This document shows, in pieces, positions 57,500 to 63,602 of a stretch of DNA of 64,000 nt. The notes under the pieces are model-generated. The model saw only the letters and a list, made by a program, of their open reading frames with translations, did not search any database and had not been told where the DNA came from. Origin of the DNA: Acidobacteriota bacterium (GTDB lineage Bacteria > Acidobacteriota > UBA4820 > DSQY01); the NCBI GenBank assembly GCA_021778515.1, contig JAJYCJ010000001.1, positions 4,396-68,395 on the forward strand, in the 5' to 3' direction. Within the stretch, counting starts at the first letter, position 1, and each line of letters starts with the position of its first letter. A program made the position numbers and the translations under genes.

Positions 57500-58315
57500 C
57501 TACTGCCGGATGTTGACCCAGTCCTTCTCGATCTTGTCGAAGAGCGCCCCCTCGTCCTTGCCCAGCCGTGGCAGCCAGTAGGCGTAGAAGAGCTGGAAGT
57601 CGGGGTTGCTCATCTTCTTCAGGAAGGTGACGAACTCCTCGTGGCCCCCCATCGGGTCCCCCTGCTTCCGTTTGATCTGGGCCATGTAGAACCAGGCGTC
57701 CCTCATGGTGTAGGGAGTGTCCCCAAGGAAATCGCTCCCCTTGTCGCACCTTGCGATGGCCGATTCGAAGGACTTCGCCGCCTCGGCGTAATTTCCCTGG
57801 TCGTAGAGGATCCGGCCCGTCAGGTAGTCGGCGATCTTGTCCCCGTCGATCCCCTTCTGGGTGCGGATCCAGCGGATCCAGGCCATGGCCGGCGGGTAGT
57901 CGCGCATCAGGCGGTACATGGTCACCTCGCCGATCACGTCCGCCAGCGGTCGGGCGGTTCGCGAGCGGGCGGCGTCGAAGTAACGCAAGGCCTCCTTGTA
58001 GTTGCCCTCGTCCCAGTAGGTCTGGGCGATGGCGGCCGGCGGTTCGTCGGATTCCGGGCGCAGGGCCCACGCCCGCAGCAGGTAGAAACGGCGGGCCTCG
58101 GGAAGGGTGGTCAGCTTGCTGGGGAGCGGCTCGCAGCAGAACATCCCCCGCTGCAGGATCTGGATGGACTTCTCGTCGGTCAGCCGTGTGGCGCAGTCCA
58201 TCTCCTTCTTGTAGTGCTCGGCCTTCGATTGGAAGGCTCCGCAGCAACCCCCGAGGGCGAGGAGCATGAGCGGCACAAGGATCCGAAAGGGTCTAGGCCT
58301 CACCTGAACCTCCAT
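57500..58315 (-). CDS. Hypothetical lipoprotein (about 270 aa), aromatic-rich
   Basis: Start chosen at MEVQVRPRPFRILVPLMLLALGGC (lipobox LALGGC); coordinates derived from ORF-table arithmetic; the 25 codons upstream in the ORF begin at a GTG. Confidence 0.55.
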   Translation of the reverse strand: MEVQVRPRPFRILVPLMLLALGGCCGAFQSKAEHYKKEMDCATRLTDEKSIQILQRGMFCCEPLPSKLTTLPEARRFYLLRAWALRPESDEPPAAIAQTYWDEGNYKEALRYFDAARSRTARPLADVIGEVTMYRLMRDYPPAMAWIRWIRTQKGIDGDKIADYLTGRILYDQGNYAEAAKSFESAIARCDKGSDFLGDTPYTMRDAWFYMAQIKRKQGDPMGGHEEFVTFLKKMSNPDFQLFYAYWLPRLGKDEGALFDKIEKDWVNIRQ

Positions 58316-58503
58316 GCAGCCATTGTAGGGACCCGACCCGTCCCCGGCAAGCGTCTTCACCTCGGCCGGCCTCCCGTGCGGCGACGGCACCTCGCCCCGC
58401 GCCCCGGCGGCCGTCGCCTGGCGCGGGACGTTGTGCTAGGATGACGGGCCGAACCCGAAAGCCGGACGGCTCGGGAGGGCATGCGCCCAGGGGGATCGTT
58501 TCA

Positions 58504-59601
58504 ATGGAACGCTATGACGTGGTCATTGTCGGGGCAGGATTCGCCGGGGCGGCCACGGCGTGGTGGCTCCGCCGGTTCGGCGTGGATAGCGTCCTCCTTC
58601 TCGAACAGGAGCAGGTCCCGGGCGCCCACGCCTCGGGAAAGAACGCGGGCATGGCCCGCCAGGCCGTCCCCGAACCCATCCAGTGCCTCCTGGCTGCCCG
58701 GAGCGTCTCCTTCTTCAAGGCGCCACCGGACGGCTTCACACAGACCCCCCTCTTCGCCGAGAACGGCGGCCTCTTCCTGGGTCCGGAACCGGACGATCCC
58801 AGGCTGGAGCAGCTCCGGCACAACGCCATGGCCTCAGGGGTCTTCACCTATTTCGGCGAGCGGCTGGAGGCCATCGAGAGGGCCCCCGTTCTCCAGGATG
58901 CGCCCTTTCATTCGGCTCTCATCTGCCCGACCGACGGCCTCGTGGACATCCACTCCCTGCTCTCGGCCTTTCTGCGGGGAAGCGCGTTGAGGACGGGCGT
59001 GCGGGTGCAAGGATTCGAGTCCTCGGGCGGAAGGCTTACGGCCGTGAAGACGGGCGCTGGCTCCATCCGGTGCGAGCACGTCGTCTTAGCGGCGGGTGCT
59101 TGGTCGCGCCAGCTCGGCGGCCTCGCCGGGGGGCTCCCCGTTCCCGTCACCCCCAGGCGGCGCCACCTCATCCACTCGGGCCCCATCCCATGGGCCGACC
59201 CCTTGTGGCCCTACGTCTGGTGCCTGAATCCCGAAGTCTACTTCCGGCCGGAGAGCGGCGGCTTTCTCCTCTCCCCCTGCGACGAGGCGGTCTTCCAGCC
59301 GGGATCGCCCCCAACCGATCCCGAGGCACCCCTCTGGCTCGCCTCCCGCCTCTCCGAGGCCGTTCCCCGCATGAGCTCCATCCCCGTGGCCCGGAGCTGG
59401 AGCGAGCTCCGCAGTTTCACGCCCGACGGCGAGTTCTGCATCGGTCCCGATCCGATGCGCCCCAACCTGTTCTGGGTCTGCGGCCTGGGCGGCCACGGCA
59501 TGACCACCTCGGCCGCCGTGGGCGAGCTGGCCGCCCAGCTCATCACGGGTTCCGATCCCTTCCTCGATCCGGTCCCCATGGCGCCGGGGCGATTCGCCTG
59601 A
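58504..59601 (+). CDS. FAD-dependent oxidoreductase (DAO/glycine oxidase-like family)
   Basis: Start at MERYDVVIVGAGFAGAATAW (GxGxxG dinucleotide motif); DAO-family C-terminal region (PDGEFCIGP...GLGGHGMT). Confidence 0.8.
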   Translation: MERYDVVIVGAGFAGAATAWWLRRFGVDSVLLLEQEQVPGAHASGKNAGMARQAVPEPIQCLLAARSVSFFKAPPDGFTQTPLFAENGGLFLGPEPDDPRLEQLRHNAMASGVFTYFGERLEAIERAPVLQDAPFHSALICPTDGLVDIHSLLSAFLRGSALRTGVRVQGFESSGGRLTAVKTGAGSIRCEHVVLAAGAWSRQLGGLAGGLPVPVTPRRRHLIHSGPIPWADPLWPYVWCLNPEVYFRPESGGFLLSPCDEAVFQPGSPPTDPEAPLWLASRLSEAVPRMSSIPVARSWSELRSFTPDGEFCIGPDPMRPNLFWVCGLGGHGMTTSAAVGELAAQLITGSDPFLDPVPMAPGRFA

Positions 59602-59625: not shown

Positions 59626-60168
59626 CTAGGGCTCTTCCCGAACGGGCGGTTGTTTCTGCGTCTGCTGGAGAAGGATGAGGCAGGATGGGGCTCCGCGTCC
59701 CATGGCCTCGCGGACTTCGGTGCTCCAGATGGTGCCCGGCAGGATGACCTCCAGCCACGAGGCCCAGACCTGCTGGCAGGCGACGCACGGCGTGTCGGGG
59801 CGCAGACCCGCCTTCGCCGCTCCCTCCTGGGGGAAGCATCGGGTGACGCGGACCTCCAGGCCCCACTCTCGAACGATCCACTGGGCCGCCATCCCCTCGT
59901 CGAGGAAAATGCGGTTGTAGCCGTCGAGGAGTTGGACGGCCTCCTCCACCGACGCCGCCGGAGGGCGGTCGAGGGCCTTCAGGTACTCCCGAATCTCGAT
60001 CCTCCCGAAGCTCGCCCTGACCCTCGCGTTGAGCTCCACGGCCTTGGGCAGCCCGCACGCCTGTGCGACCTTCAGGAACCATTGGCCGTCCCAGGCCAGC
60101 ATGAGCCGCCCCAGAAGGCGTCGCGCCTCTTCCTCGGAGAGCTGGATTTCGGGCCTGCGTTCTTTCAT
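59626..60168 (-). CDS. Hypothetical protein (180 aa)
   Basis: Protein-like composition (MKERRPEIQLSEEEARRLLGRLMLAWDGQWFLKVAQ...), CVAC pair; convergent with the FAD oxidoreductase; no family recognised. Confidence 0.55.
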   Translation of the reverse strand: MKERRPEIQLSEEEARRLLGRLMLAWDGQWFLKVAQACGLPKAVELNARVRASFGRIEIREYLKALDRPPAASVEEAVQLLDGYNRIFLDEGMAAQWIVREWGLEVRVTRCFPQEGAAKAGLRPDTPCVACQQVWASWLEVILPGTIWSTEVREAMGRGAPSCLILLQQTQKQPPVREEP

Positions 60169-60459
60169 GGTCCTCTCCCGCCGGGCATTTTACAGCGCTC
60201 GGGTGCCCGCGTGAAGCGCAGAAGGAGGGCGGAGCCAACCCTGCAGCGGACCTTCGCAGGTGTGTCCCCCATGGCTGAGAGCCTCGGGAGAGGGCCGCGC
60301 AGGCCAGAAGCCGTGCCTCAGAAGGTTTCCGCCCGGCCATGATTCCGATCCCGCGTTGACAGGGGATCGCCGCTGTGGCAAGGTCGGAGCAGAATTCTTC
60401 GCCGGTGCTGCCACGCGGCTTGGCGTGGCCCGCGAGGGAGGCTGCGGGAAGGGGAGAGG

Positions 60460-61833
60460 ATGGACGATTCGGGGGTTCTGCTATTTCGCTGTACCTCGTG
60501 TGGAAGGGAATACCAGCTGGCCCTGGCCAAGGTGCCTCCCGGCGGGGCCTCCGGCCCATGCAAGACCTGCGGACAGATCATCGGGGTCCATCCCGACGGC
60601 TCCCTCGCGGGGGCACGGCGGATCTCCACGCCGGCCGCCCCTGAACAGCACGCCGGCGCAGGCCCGCCAACCGCCCGGCCGGCGGTCGATCCCGGGGCGG
60701 CCCCCTGCCCCCCGGCCTGGGAGATCCAGACCGAAGGTCAGAGCCTGGGACCTTTCGGGCCCGACGAGATGCGCGAGCTGATCGCCTCCGGGCGGCTCTC
60801 CAAGGAGCGCTTGGTCCGTTCGCCGGGGGGGGAGTGGGCCCCCGCCGGCTCCCTGCCTGCCCTGGCGGGGTTCTTTCCCGCCGAGGCGCCGCTGCAGCCC
60901 GAGGCGGACGAGGGGCCCATCGGGAGCGAGGGGGGTTGTTATGCCCATCCCTCGGCCCCGCCTGCCTTTCAATGCTCGCAGTGCATGCGCTACCTGTGTG
61001 AATCTTGCGTGGTTCAGAAGGCCCTGACCAATGTGAACCAACCGGTCAAGGTCTGCAGAGCCTGCGGGGGGACGGTCACGGCCCTTCTGCGGAAACCCCG
61101 ATGGACTCCGTTCTACAGGGACATGCCCAGGGTCCTCACGGCCCCGCTGCGAGGCACCGACGGGCTTCTGGCGCTCGGTGTGATGGCCCTGCTCCAGGTG
61201 CTCAAGATCCCCTGCCGTATGGCGGGCATGGCCGGCCTGGCTGGGGTCCTCATCCTCACCGTCTTTCAAACGGCCTTTTACCTTCACCTGATCCGGGAGG
61301 TGGCGAACGGTTCCTACGACTTCCCGGAGTGGCCGGAGATGAGCCAGTTCCTGGACATGTTTTTCTCGTTCCTGAAGGTCCTCTTCGTGACCATCTACTC
61401 CCTGGTGCCAGCCTTCTGCCTCGTCCTGGTGCCCGGAGCCAGCGCCATGAATCTCCTGCTGGGGCCGCGGGGTATGGGACACGGGGCCGTGGCGGCTCCC
61501 GCCCTTGTCCTCGCCGGCGTCGTGATGCTCTGCTACGCCTTCTACCTGCCCATCTGCATCGCCATCGTGGCCGTCTTCGAGACGGTCCTGCCCGCCCTCA
61601 ATCCCGTCCTGATTGTCAGAATTATCGCCAGGATCGGGATGCCCTACCTGGCCGCCGTGGCCCTTTTCATCTCCCTCATGGTGATCGCCCGGGGCGTCAT
61701 AGCGGCGCTGGGACACCTCCCCATGGCCGGAGCGGTGAGCGAGGCCGTCCTCACGGTCTACGGAGAGCTCGTGAGCGCCTACATCCTGGGCAGGGTCATC
61801 TACGAAAACGAGGAGAGCATCGCCTGGCGGTGA
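60460..61833 (+). CDS. Multi-domain membrane protein: N-terminal zinc ribbon, GYF-like (DUF4339) domain, B-box-like Cys cluster, about 7-TM C-terminal domain
   Basis: CTSCGREYQ...CKTCGQ; GYF-like WEIQTEGQSLGPFGPDEMRELIASGRLSKERLVRSPGGEWAP; CSQCMRYLCESC...CRACGG; then hydrophobic helices to the C-terminus. Confidence 0.7.
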   Translation: MDDSGVLLFRCTSCGREYQLALAKVPPGGASGPCKTCGQIIGVHPDGSLAGARRISTPAAPEQHAGAGPPTARPAVDPGAAPCPPAWEIQTEGQSLGPFGPDEMRELIASGRLSKERLVRSPGGEWAPAGSLPALAGFFPAEAPLQPEADEGPIGSEGGCYAHPSAPPAFQCSQCMRYLCESCVVQKALTNVNQPVKVCRACGGTVTALLRKPRWTPFYRDMPRVLTAPLRGTDGLLALGVMALLQVLKIPCRMAGMAGLAGVLILTVFQTAFYLHLIREVANGSYDFPEWPEMSQFLDMFFSFLKVLFVTIYSLVPAFCLVLVPGASAMNLLLGPRGMGHGAVAAPALVLAGVVMLCYAFYLPICIAIVAVFETVLPALNPVLIVRIIARIGMPYLAAVALFISLMVIARGVIAALGHLPMAGAVSEAVLTVYGELVSAYILGRVIYENEESIAWR

Positions 61834-61921
61834 GCCCATCGTTCGCCCGCGGGACCCGGCGGACTGGACCTCGTCGGGCCGCCGTCCGCCATCATCCAAC
61901 AGGCGTCCGTGCGGCCCGCCC

Positions 61922-63340
61922 TCACACGTCGAAGTAGAGCGCCACCTCGTACGGGTGGGGCCTGTTTCTGACGCCGTAGTACTCCTCGTATTTGACCTTG
62001 ATCCACTCGGCGATCTGCCCCTCGTCGAAGACGCCGCCGGCCAGGAGGAAATCGTGGTCCCGCTCGAGGGCGTCGAGGGCCTCCCGCAGAGTCGAGGGCA
62101 GGGGCTTGACGGAGGCCCTGCGCTTCTCGTCCCAGGCGAAGATGTTCTCGTCGAAGGGGCCGAAGCCCAGGGCGCCGGGATCCAGCTTTCGGCGGATCCC
62201 GTCGAGGCCGGCCATGAGCTGCGCCGCGAGGGCCAGGTAGACGTTGCACGTGGCATCCGGCGGGCGGAACTCGAACCGCACGGTCTCGGGCTGGTCCGCG
62301 TACTTGGGGACCCTGATCGCCGCGCTGCGGTTGCCCAGCGAGAAGAACGTGTTCACGGGCGCCTCGAAGCCCGGCACCAGCCGGCGGTAGGAGTTGGAGG
62401 AGGGGTTGGTGAGAGCCAGGACGGCCGGCCCGTGCAGCAAGAGCCCGGCGATGTAAGAGAGCGCCGTACCGCTGAGGTGGCCGTAACCGTCGGGGTCGTA
62501 GAAGAGGTTCCGGTCCCCGTCGAAGAGGTGCTGGTGGAAGTGCATCCCGCTGCCCGCCTCGCCATAGAGCGGCTTGGGCATGAAGGTGGCGGTCTGATTT
62601 CGCGCGTGGGCCACCATCTTGGTCACGTACTTCACCATCTGCGTGACGTCCCCGCTGCGCACCAGGCCCATCATCGGGGTCTCGATCTCGCACTGCCCGG
62701 GACCGCCCACCTCGTGGTGGTGGTACTTGATGGGGATGCCCATCTCCTCCAGCACCACCGACATTTCGCTCCTGAGGTTGAAGAGCTGGTCCTTGGGCGG
62801 AATGACATGGTAGCCGCCGTGCAGCGGGATGAGGTGGCCGTGCCCCCCCTTGGCGCTCTGCCAATCGGCCTCCCGGCTGTCCAGCCTGTAGGAGGCCTCG
62901 TTCACTCCGTTCTGGAAGGCGACGCTGTCGAACACGTAGAACTCGAACTCCGGGCCCCACAGGCTCCGCTCTCCCGCCCCGAACTCGCGGAGGGTCTCCT
63001 CGGCTCTCAGCGCTATGTTTCGGGGATCGCGCATGAAGGGCTGTTTGCTGTCCGCCTCGAAGGCCGAGCAGATGAAGCTCAGCGTGGGGAAGTCCCAGAA
63101 GGGATCGCGGAAGGCGGTGGCGAGATCGGGGATCAGGACCATGTCGCCGGACTTGACCGACTTGAGCCCCACGGAGGAGCCGTCGAAGCCGACGCCGTCC
63201 CTCATGAGGCGCTCGTCGAACTGGCTGGCGGGCACCGTGACGTGGTGCCAGCGGCCCGCCAGGTCGGTGAACTTCAGGTCCACCATCCTGTAGCCCTTTT
63301 CCCGGATGTGGCTCTTCGCTTCTTCGATTCCACCGAGCAT
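61922..63340 (-). CDS. glnA: Glutamine synthetase, type I
   Basis: 472 aa from MLGGIEEAKSHIREKGYRMVDLKFTDLAGRWHH; GS motifs (KPLYGEAGSGMHFHQ, NPSSNSYRRL, SLGNRSAAIRVP); RBS AGGAGG 5 nt upstream. Confidence 0.9.
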   Translation of the reverse strand: MLGGIEEAKSHIREKGYRMVDLKFTDLAGRWHHVTVPASQFDERLMRDGVGFDGSSVGLKSVKSGDMVLIPDLATAFRDPFWDFPTLSFICSAFEADSKQPFMRDPRNIALRAEETLREFGAGERSLWGPEFEFYVFDSVAFQNGVNEASYRLDSREADWQSAKGGHGHLIPLHGGYHVIPPKDQLFNLRSEMSVVLEEMGIPIKYHHHEVGGPGQCEIETPMMGLVRSGDVTQMVKYVTKMVAHARNQTATFMPKPLYGEAGSGMHFHQHLFDGDRNLFYDPDGYGHLSGTALSYIAGLLLHGPAVLALTNPSSNSYRRLVPGFEAPVNTFFSLGNRSAAIRVPKYADQPETVRFEFRPPDATCNVYLALAAQLMAGLDGIRRKLDPGALGFGPFDENIFAWDEKRRASVKPLPSTLREALDALERDHDFLLAGGVFDEGQIAEWIKVKYEEYYGVRNRPHPYEVALYFDV

Positions 63341-63602
63341 GCCGCCCTCCTCATGAAGTGATGGCCGAGCGAATCGCAGCGTGAGCCCCGCCTGCAATCC
63401 CTCGTTGCGAACACCCGCGGCCCCATGAATCTCTGCCCTCGCACCATCCCGACCCGAAAAACCTCATCCGCCAATGTTTTCGGCCTCCACGCCACCCTGG
63501 AGAATTCATGCCATCTCCGCGGGCCCCGCACACCGAGCCACAAGGGGAAAAAGAAGGGGCCCTCGCGGGCCCCTCTCGTGTGTCAGGATCGCTGGGCTGG
63601 GC

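Follow-up and report, generated by a model that had tools for sequence, protein, structure and literature searches.

The locus and its gene

The window, meaning the whole 64-kb stretch of DNA that was analysed, carries on its forward strand an open reading frame (60460-61833) of 457 codons plus stop. The ORF list places an ATG at its start, as had been stated earlier, and the purine-rich stretch GGGGAGAGG lies immediately upstream of this start. The features of the 457-aa product, and the DNA coding for them, are distributed as follows:

60460..61833, + strand: whole gene; zinc ribbon (ZnR), linker, GYF, linker, B-box and six-helix DUF4013 body
60475..60588, + strand: putative N-terminal zinc ribbon of Zn_ribbon_4/MJ0042 type, GltJ-ZnR-like (aa 6-43; C11, C14, C34, C37)
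60589..60717, + strand: disordered Pro/Ala-rich linker (aa 44-86; 23% Pro, 26% Ala)
60718..60870, + strand: GYF_2 domain (aa 87-137)
60937..61083, + strand: predicted B-box-type binuclear zinc finger, directly before the membrane (aa 160-208; eight ligands)
61102..61152, + strand: basic juxtamembrane segment (aa 215-231; WTPFYRDM…APL) that includes a short amphipathic helix
61153..61305, + strand: predicted membrane hairpin 1 (aa 232-282; AlphaFold2 and hydropathy), formed by helices 232-254 and 257-282 around a 2-residue turn
61306..61338, + strand: predicted cytoplasmic loop motif N-G-S-Y-D-F-P-E-W-P-E (aa 283-293; alignments)
61339..61578, + strand: predicted membrane hairpin 2 (aa 294-373; AlphaFold2 models), formed by long helices 294-333 and 341-373
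61579..61638, + strand: predicted cytoplasmic-face segment T-V-L-P-A-L-N-P-V-L-I-V-R-I-I-A-R-I-G, short helices (aa 374-393)
61639..61806, + strand: predicted membrane hairpin 3 (aa 394-449; AlphaFold2 models), formed by helices 394-416 and 421-449
61792..61830, + strand: predicted cytoplasmic C-terminal motif G-R-V-x-Y-E-N-E-E-x-I-x-W (aa 444-457)

This order of zinc ribbon, GYF domain, B-box-like cluster and membrane domain is that of the original prediction, and all four parts are present. Because the protein has 22 homologues (identity 42-91%, almost full-length) and two Pfam domains above their gathering cut-offs, 60460-61833 is a real gene, and a chance high-GC ORF is excluded. The full-length relatives (~20) derive from Acidobacteriota/Thermoanaerobaculia MAGs, and close relatives are named 'GYF domain-containing' or 'DUF4013 domain-containing' protein by NCBI. 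Within the 64-kb window the ZnR, GYF or core HMMs match no other ORF, and no paralogues of the protein were found there.

The gene 59626-60168 on the reverse strand, which scores 25.2 bits against DUF6125 (cut-off 27), is present in divergent orientation. This arrangement had been singled out as a feature, but it is not conserved; an 89%-identical copy (L002) has a different upstream gene. Since the DUF6125-like gene is common to the nearest relatives only, operon-based inference of function was dropped. No recurring neighbour gene was found across the nine contexts of family members examined, which were drawn from the close relatives L001-L006 and the distant members L017, the P0181 contig, L019, L020 and L021. 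A role in a defence system was also discarded, with zero PADLOC matches for the protein, its divergent neighbour and two relatives. The gene is stand-alone in the genome.

The N-terminal zinc ribbon, linker and GYF domain

An MJ0042-type double CxxC zinc ribbon had been proposed at the N-terminus, and both of its pairs are present (C11-x2-C14 … C34-x2-C37). Against Zn_ribbon_4 (PF13717; cut-off 30.3) the 457-aa protein alone falls short with 22.2 bits, and its relatives pass with 35-46 bits. The family profile of this region matches the solved GltJ ZnR (7zok) with an E value of 7.7e-8, and AlphaFold2 models it as four beta-strands with a pLDDT of ~80-85. The zinc finger of ZitP is also among the matches to the head, in both the profile search and Foldseek. 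In the linker that follows, residues 58-83 have a pLDDT below 50. Most relatives have a second zinc ribbon at the linker position, which is absent from the lineage of the 457-aa protein (alignment columns 101-170).

The GYF-like (DUF4339) domain that had been expected next is likewise borne out. Residues 89-135 score 37.4 bits against GYF_2 (PF14237; formerly DUF4339), above the gathering cut-off of 25.8, and belong to this family. The GYF profile matches the GltJ GYF domain (7z3c; E 6e-8), and Foldseek comparison of the modelled domain recovered the GYF domains of GltJ, GIGYF and Smy2 (probability ~1.0). The head had been described as serving 'nucleic-acid or protein recognition', of which only protein recognition is supported: for both head domains the closest relatives of known structure are protein binders, and nothing indicates nucleic acid.

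The B-box zinc finger

The second cysteine cluster of the original prediction is real, but its description was incomplete, the first ligand pair (C-x2-H) having been missed. The full pattern is C160-x2-H163-x8-C172-x2-C175-x4-C180-x2-C183-x15-C199-x2-C202, and none of the eight ligands is retained in fewer than 134 of 142 diverse family members. The 457-aa protein alone matches zf-B_box (PF00643) weakly, at 15.3-16 bits against a cut-off of 24.1, while its relative P0040 exceeds this cut-off (29.5 bits) and 43/47 core-only members match the Pfam model (best E 2e-6). Furthermore, the family profile matches the B-boxes of TRIM2 (E 4.7e-5) and TRIM3 (E 1.1e-3). Judged by these profile comparisons, the identity of the domain as a B-box appears confirmed at family level.

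The DUF4013 membrane body and its topology

The full protein scores 30.1 bits against DUF4013 (PF13197) over residues 263-417, above the gathering cut-off of 26.9, and its C-terminal part alone scores 31.6 bits; DUF4013 is also matched by 38 of the 96 longer relatives. The body is thus a DUF4013 member, and the earlier view that the protein could not be placed in a known family does not hold; the combination of ZnR, GYF and membrane module has, moreover, already been described. The hydrophobic half spans residues ~232-449. In the AlphaFold2 models it consists of six long helices arranged as three hairpins, with additional short amphipathic helices. These models and the K+R distribution replace the earlier count of about seven helices. 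The body is the best-conserved part of the protein, with a mean column identity of 63% vs 50% for the whole protein.

The residues of the body that are conserved family-wide are Pro, Gly, Tyr and one Asn. In the juxtamembrane segment, of which residues 222-230 are modelled as a helix, F218 and P229 are family-conserved. In the loop 283-293, which has a fixed length of 14-17 aa among the 142 members, G284 and P289 are almost invariant. Hairpin 2 has P317, Y362 and P364 conserved, and its 7-residue outer turn is the sole variable loop, with a long acidic insertion at the tip in 18/142 relatives. N381 and P382 are conserved in the segment 374-393, while Y396, Y434 and G444 of hairpin 3 are invariant or almost so. 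The C-terminal motif takes the family-wide form L-G-x-x-Y-x-x-N-x-x-x-L-x-W, with G444 in 142/142 and W456 in 115/142 members; in the close clade R445, E449, N450, E451 and W456 are invariant. Residues of the body that are specific to the clade include H276, R445 and E449-N450-E451. An enzyme or peptidase body was rejected, as residues of catalytic type are not conserved family-wide.

Positive charge is strongly biased towards one side of the body. Across the 142 members the mean number of K+R is 3.98, 1.32, 1.89 and 1.88 in the cytoplasmic segments vs 0.03, 0.24 and 0.29 in the outer turns. The average of ~4 K+R in the juxtamembrane segment marks this segment as cytoplasmic, and the outer turn of hairpin 1 has ~0. 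Zinc fingers need the reducing cytoplasm. On account of both this bias and the zinc fingers, an N-in/C-in topology is predicted, with the soluble domains and the conserved body motifs all facing the cytoplasm; the earlier picture, in which an integral membrane body bears a recognition head in the cytosol, is supported. The outer turns are 2-7 residues long, and therefore no extracytoplasmic sensor is expected.

A B-box–DUF4013 family with interchangeable heads

The protein is an inner-membrane member of a large B-box–DUF4013 family, and as such of a catalogued kind and not new. A profile of B-box plus body matched 2051 cluster representatives with E ≤ 1e-3, of which 784 reached E ≤ 1e-10; core-only proteins of 280-320 aa make up many of these matches. 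Among the 142 sampled members, about a third (46/142) consist of the core only (B-box and body, ~290 aa), and the heads found among the 96 longer members include Zn_ribbon_4 (30), GYF_2 (25), FHA (22) and TPR (~7). The DUF4013 unit has the B-box as an obligate component, and the ZnR, GYF, FHA and TPR heads, all of them protein-interaction modules, are swapped on this core. As to taxonomic range, a contig scan with clade-specific patterns gave 10 Acidobacteriota/Thermoanaerobaculia loci only, and a homologue search with a diverse core alignment mostly recovered the close clade again. The cluster names in the family are few, and refer to Acidobacteriota and one Verrucomicrobia MAG. No experimental work on any DUF4013 protein was found in the literature, the single paper carrying the name being irrelevant. 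The gene itself is ordinary, and databases already list it as a 'GYF/DUF4013 domain-containing protein'. What the re-analysis contributes is the obligate B-box, the predicted exposure of all conserved parts to the cytoplasm, the interchangeable heads and a predicted fold nearest to CysZ and CTL/PNS1.

Possible functions of the protein

The protein is most likely a cytoplasm-facing membrane module controlled via peptide-binding adaptor domains. The best explanation as a whole, which is put forward tentatively and with a little less than even confidence, is that of a B-box–DUF4013 membrane core bearing a GltJ-type peptide-binding head. The obligate core comprises a binuclear B-box joined directly to a six-helix, three-hairpin membrane domain, to which the Acidobacteriota lineage has added the GltJ-type head of zinc ribbon, Pro/Ala-rich disordered linker and GYF domain. 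By homology, the head modules would serve as peptide-binding adaptors. As in GltJ, a proline-rich sequence would be the ligand of the GYF domain, and the ZnR would engage either its own linker or a helix of a partner. While the analysis itself shows the domain identities, the topology, the head-swapping structure of the family and the stand-alone status of the gene, we infer these ligand types, the coupling of head to body and any transport activity.

A pure membrane-anchored scaffold, in which the DUF4013 body anchors and perhaps oligomerises, the ZnR, GYF and B-box recruit cytosolic partners and nothing is transported, is possible but rather doubtful. It would accord with the adaptor nature of every module added in the family (ZnR, GYF, FHA, TPR), with the structural character of the conserved Pro, Gly and Tyr residues of the body, and with the precedents of GltJ and ZitP, both of which recruit proteins. 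The authors of the CTL/PNS1 structures judged that the fold appears incompatible with transport (PMC13160678). Against a scaffold stand the 46/142 sampled members with B-box and body and no adaptor head, as a result of which the body itself must carry function. Furthermore, a single TM helix suffices for GltJ and ZitP, whereas here a six-helix body is the best-conserved part, and polar motifs on the cytoplasmic side of this body are invariant.

Burroughs, Iyer and Aravind (2011) reportedly proposed that B-box, AN1 and LIM domains of prokaryotes act together with membrane-associated peptidases, and the protein could by analogy be a partner or regulator of such peptidases in membrane-protein processing or quality control. 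M20 and S9 peptidase genes do occur within a few genes in some contexts; however, no peptidase family recurs in the nine contexts, the peptidases found are soluble and differ in family, and the body has no conserved catalytic residues, which makes this role improbable. A head that recognises nucleic acid, with zinc ribbon and B-box tethering DNA or RNA to the membrane, is very improbable, as the ZnR and the GYF domain both have protein binders as their closest homologues of known structure (GltJ and ZitP for the ZnR), B-boxes are protein-interaction modules, and the alternative FHA and TPR heads of the family are peptide binders. What speaks for it is that some zinc ribbons do bind nucleic acids (PMC11135422). 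Finally, it is extremely improbable, and at the sequence level largely refuted, that the protein is a true divergent CysZ/EI24 member that imports sulfate. Alignment of the family profile with CysZ by hhalign gave a probability of 1.6%; Pfam EI24 did not match even at E ≤ 1, a profile search of the PDB gave zinc-finger matches only, CysZ was not recovered by Foldseek, and sulfur-assimilation genes were not seen nearby. The CysZ signature motifs GLR (sulfate site), ExVE and QYxDYPxDNHK (PMC5967866) are absent from the 457-aa protein, and DNHK and Y.DYP occur in 0/142 relatives.

Beyond the favoured combination of a B-box–DUF4013 core with a GltJ-type head, the family might represent a widespread, signal-controlled prokaryotic branch of the fold class of CysZ and the eukaryotic CTL/SLC44 proteins, with the B-box coupling the body to interchangeable inputs that gate a conduit or trigger higher-order assembly. 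FHA heads would then provide a phospho-threonine input, and ZnR-GYF heads one of proline-rich or small-GTPase type, on the model of GltJ. Such a branch is unlikely. The resemblance of the body fold to CysZ/CTL was obtained with one method and a predicted model (pLDDT 79, pTM 0.69); Foldseek on the same body model returned nothing significant, the best TM-score being 0.32 to PNS1 and CysZ lying outside the top 50. Conserved polar residues able to line a pore are few family-wide. If this placement were true, the family would offer a tractable bacterial model for CTL function, and bacteria would have a new form of signalling output. If both the fold link and the coupling of head and body are real, a signal-regulated membrane module would be present in hundreds of lineages, and the disputed function of the CTL fold might become accessible through bacteria.

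Comparison with known systems

GltJ of Myxococcus xanthus has the same head, with ZnR, disordered linker and GYF domain at the cytoplasmic N-terminus of a membrane protein, and its ZnR and GYF domains are the best PDB sequence matches of the head domains (E ~1e-7). GltJ continues from ZnR-GYF through a single TM helix into a periplasmic domain. The two proteins differ in the C-terminal two-thirds, which here comprise the B-box plus DUF4013, GltJ having neither a B-box nor a DUF4013 body. Orthology with GltJ was rejected, the NCBIfam equivalog gliding_GltJ (NF033761) giving 20.9 bits against a cut-off of 450 and covering residues 9-91 only. A role in gliding motility was rejected together with it, and neither the genes flanking this one most closely nor the contexts of its relatives contained any gliding-motility gene. 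The GYF domain of GltJ binds a proline-rich sequence of AglZ, and its ZnR switches between its own linker and MglB (PMC11135422). ZnR, GYF and membrane module form a common bacterial architecture, an adjacent ZnR occurring in ~44% of bacterial GYF proteins, then mostly with a membrane module (PMC11135422).

The eukaryotic B-boxes of TRIM proteins share B-box2 spacing with the first six ligands of the family (C-x2-H-x8-C-x2-C-x4-C-x2-C). In contrast to the TRIM B-box, the last ligand pair of the family is C-x2-C after a 15-residue spacer and is not His-based, and the domain adjoins a membrane domain, with no RING or coiled-coil partners.

CysZ (PDB 3tx3, 6d79, 6d9z) is without zinc-finger or adaptor domains. 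It is reported to be a dual-topology hexamer (PMC5967866), whereas here the size of the cytoplasmic head and the marked positive-inside bias would allow one orientation only. CTL1/SLC44A1 and yeast PNS1 (PDB 7wwb, 9f63) have 7-9% identity to the body, and Pfam Choline_transpo gave no cross-match, which leaves the protein outside SLC44/CTL. The CTL proteins, found in eukaryotes, are of greater size and have additional helices as well as a large extracellular domain. Their own function is disputed (PMC13160678). The 457-aa protein has in common with the 142 members of the B-box–DUF4013 family the eight B-box ligands, the Pro/Gly/Tyr positions of the body and the order of elements, and differs from the core-only members in adding the ZnR-linker-GYF head.

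Gene assignment and domain organisation

The open reading frame at 60460-61833 (+) begins with ATG, directly preceded by a purine-rich stretch, and encodes 457 aa. The high GC content of the DNA (~67%) gives rise to many spurious long ORFs. Despite this background, the 60460-61833 (+) frame is the coding one, since its product has twenty-two database homologues (42-91% identity, essentially full length) and two domains above the Pfam cut-offs, GYF_2 (37.4 bits; cut-off 25.8) and DUF4013 (30.1 bits; cut-off 26.9), which bears out the gene originally predicted here. When all ORFs of the window were compared with family HMMs for the zinc ribbon, GYF domain and core (B-box plus membrane body), this ORF was the sole match. 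It is overlapped by an antisense ORF:

60481-62256 (-), 591-aa ORF covering nearly the whole 60460-61833 gene

Its translation is Arg/Gly/Pro-rich, a composition typically seen where high-GC DNA is read in a non-coding frame, and none of the three HMMs matches it. This ORF is probably spurious.

Features of the 457-aa protein (all on the + strand)
aa 6-43 (+), predicted zinc ribbon, ligands C11-x2-C14 … C34-x2-C37
aa 44-86, 60589-60717 (+), disordered linker, 23% Pro, 26% Ala
aa 87-137 (+), GYF domain, matching Pfam GYF_2
aa 160-208 (+), predicted binuclear zinc finger of the B-box type, C-x2-H-x8-C-x2-C-x4-C-x2-C-x15-C-x2-C
aa 232-254/257-282 (+), hairpin 1 (AlphaFold2)
aa 283-293 (+), fixed-length loop NGSYDFPEWPE, joining hairpins on one side
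aa 294-333/341-373 (+), hairpin 2 (AlphaFold2)
aa 374-393 (+), short-helix segment TVLPALNPVLIVRIIARIG, joining hairpins on the same side as loop 283-293
aa 394-416/421-449 (+), hairpin 3 (AlphaFold2)
C-terminal tail (+), conserved GRVxYENEExIxW (alignment and models)

Family membership and core

DUF4013 proteins with a B-box form a catalogued but uncharacterised family, of which the 457-aa protein is a member. Its head is of a type already described, resembling the zinc ribbon-GYF arrangement of the Myxococcus motility protein GltJ. The original prediction, which had recognised the domains and placed them in no known family, thus stands as an observation but was only partly right as an interpretation. 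A profile of the B-box and body, searched against 1.84 billion cluster representatives, yielded 2051 matches at E ≤ 1e-3, 784 at E ≤ 1e-10 and 30 at E ≤ 1e-30. In an aligned set of 142 sequences (the window protein and 141 of the best 150 matches), forty-six members of ≤340 aa comprise an N-terminal B-box and the body and nothing else, which makes this unit the family core. The ninety-six longer members add Zn_ribbon_4 (30), GYF_2 (25), FHA (22) or C-terminal TPR repeats (~7), all of which are protein-interaction modules. The order zinc ribbon, GYF, B-box and DUF4013 also occurs in more distant subfamilies (P0040, P0050, P0054). Few members have a named source: those of the close clade come from MAGs of Acidobacteriota and Thermoanaerobaculia, and one core-only member comes from a Verrucomicrobia MAG.

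Zinc-binding and GYF domains

The B-box scores weakly on the window sequence alone (15-16 bits), and its assignment is supported at the level of the family: each of the eight ligands is present in at least 134 of the 142 diverse members, 43/47 core-only relatives match Pfam zf-B_box, and the family profile matches the B-boxes of TRIM2 (E 4.7e-5) and TRIM3 (E 1.1e-3) in the PDB. The second cysteine cluster reported originally is thus present, although its first C/H pair had been overlooked and one spacer miscounted. The N-terminal CxxC pairs and the GYF-like domain were read correctly. Both CxxC pairs of the putative zinc ribbon are present and it is modelled as a beta-ribbon (pLDDT ~80-85); the window protein alone scores 22.2 bits against Zn_ribbon_4, under the cut-off of 30.3 that its relatives exceed, while the family profile finds the structure of the zinc ribbon of GltJ (7zok) at E 7.7e-8. 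The GYF domain matches that of GltJ (7z3c; E 6e-8) and is superposed by Foldseek on the GYF domains of GltJ, GIGYF and Smy2. Among solved structures, the head has sequence relatives only in the two N-terminal domains of GltJ, apart from a weak match to the zinc finger of ZitP, another protein-binding zinc ribbon.

Most relatives carry a tandem pair of zinc ribbons, the second lying between the first and the GYF domain (e.g. P0003, P0004, P0006-P0010, P0012-P0017, P0020). It is absent from the sub-clade of the window protein, P0001, P0002 and P0005, where only the Pro/Ala-rich linker is found (60589-60717; columns 101-170 of A1, the alignment with close relatives). The aligned sequences suggest that the domain was lost in this lineage.

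Membrane body and topology

In both of two AlphaFold2 runs (pTM 0.69 for the core; pLDDT 77-79 overall, ~85-90 in helices), aa ~232-449 form six long helices in three hairpins, rather than the approximately seven helices originally counted. Across the 142 members, Lys+Arg residues average 3.98 before TM1 and 1.32, 1.89 and 1.88 after TM2, TM4 and TM6, respectively, as against 0.03, 0.24 and 0.29 in the three hairpin turns, whose mean lengths are 2, 4.4 and 5.7 residues. This distribution, together with the three predicted zinc-binding domains in the N-terminal part, gives an N-in/C-in topology, with all soluble domains and conserved motifs facing the cytoplasm and practically nothing outside. 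Body positions conserved family-wide are P229, G284, P289, P317, P364, P382, Y396, Y434, G444, W456 and N381, and no enzyme-type His/Asp/Glu/Ser/Cys constellation is retained family-wide in the body; the many polar invariants of the close clade, such as H276, R445 and E449-N450-E451, are specific to it.

In 18/142 members, including P0117, P0041, P0082, P0156, P0043 and P0042 (family alignment A3), at least 100 residues separate the conserved TM3 Pro and TM4 Tyr, compared to 46 in the window protein. The extra sequence is strongly acidic, of low complexity and Glu/Asp/Gln-rich, and is inserted where hairpin 2 has its tip, corresponding to aa 334-340 of the window protein (nt 61459-61479), the only place on the outer face where the family tolerates an insertion.

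Genomic context

The 60460-61833 gene stands alone among its neighbours:

57500-58390 (-), 296-aa TPR-repeat protein, N-terminal …LMLLALGGCCG… resembling a lipoprotein signal peptide
59626-60168 (-), 180-aa divergent neighbour, DUF6125 25.2 bits (under the cut-off of 27)
61922-63397 (-), glutamine synthetase, downstream

The divergent arrangement described originally exists, and the window's divergent neighbour has no NCBIfam or PADLOC match. Among the relatives, such a neighbour is found beside the gene in the closest ones alone (loci L001 and L003); upstream of the 89%-identical copy in L002 a sigma-70/efflux cluster is found instead. In place of the glutamine synthetase, all three loci carry a 1071-aa gene of no assigned function and an RHS/YD-shell gene, so that synteny breaks at both gene ends among 89%-identical copies (window 59626-60459 and 61834-63397). 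Six further contexts of more distant members share no common neighbour, and PADLOC returned no matches for the protein, its divergent neighbour or two relatives.

The TPR-repeat gene lies beside an FAD oxidoreductase (58441-59601), an adjacency kept in L001. Asparagine-synthase-like genes (GATase_7 and Asn_synthase) occur within one to two genes of the distantly related P0003 (L006 4145-6022 (-)) and P0181, and are absent from the other seven contexts; this proximity could be a coincidence. In locus L004 (16383-17542), approximately 7-8 kb downstream of the family member P0007, there are three genes: one of 247 aa with no annotation, one with a STAS domain and one of 335 aa that weakly matches the Ras family. 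They are of possible interest because the head of GltJ, a homologue of the head here, functions together with MglA, a Ras-like GTPase.

Proposed function and comparison with known systems

The family thus presents a six-helix membrane module facing the cytoplasm, in which the juxtamembrane B-box is obligate and the peptide-binding heads are interchangeable. A cytosolic ligand would bind the head, a proline-rich segment at the GYF domain and a helix or linker peptide at the zinc ribbon, and the B-box may pass this binding on to the body as a change in its conformation or assembly. A pure membrane scaffold is the main rival, against which it can be argued that about a third of the sampled members lack any head and that the body is the best-conserved part (mean column identity of 63% in alignment A2 versus 50% for the whole protein). 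Both points indicate that function resides in the core. Prokaryotic B-boxes have reportedly been tied by others to membrane-protein folding, stability and proteolysis; a peptidase-partner role is nevertheless less likely.

As judged from the models, CysZ, a permease, would be the nearest structural neighbour of the body with demonstrated activity. The CysZ/CTL-like fold is graded only as probable, with serious caveats, because the query was a predicted body and not a solved structure, Foldseek returned nothing significant for either model (best TM-score PNS1, 0.32; CysZ not among the matches listed), hhalign of the family profile against a CysZ alignment gave a probability of 1.6%, and the CysZ motifs GLR, ExVE and QYxDYPxDNHK are absent. 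The same results do not support membership of the CysZ or choline-transporter-like (CTL) family, and a true CysZ role is likewise less likely than the ligand-responsive module proposed here.

The protein is not a GltJ orthologue (20.9 bits; equivalog cut-off 450). Its head follows a recognised pattern, as a zinc ribbon adjoins the GYF domain in ~44% of bacterial GYF proteins, followed in most by a membrane module (PMC11135422). In GltJ, the GYF domain binds the proline-rich sequence of AglZ via its beta-sheet face, and the zinc ribbon acts as a switch, with the linker of GltJ itself and the C-terminal helix of MglB as alternative ligands (PMC11135422). By analogy, the 23%-Pro linker of the window protein might serve as an auto-inhibitory ligand.
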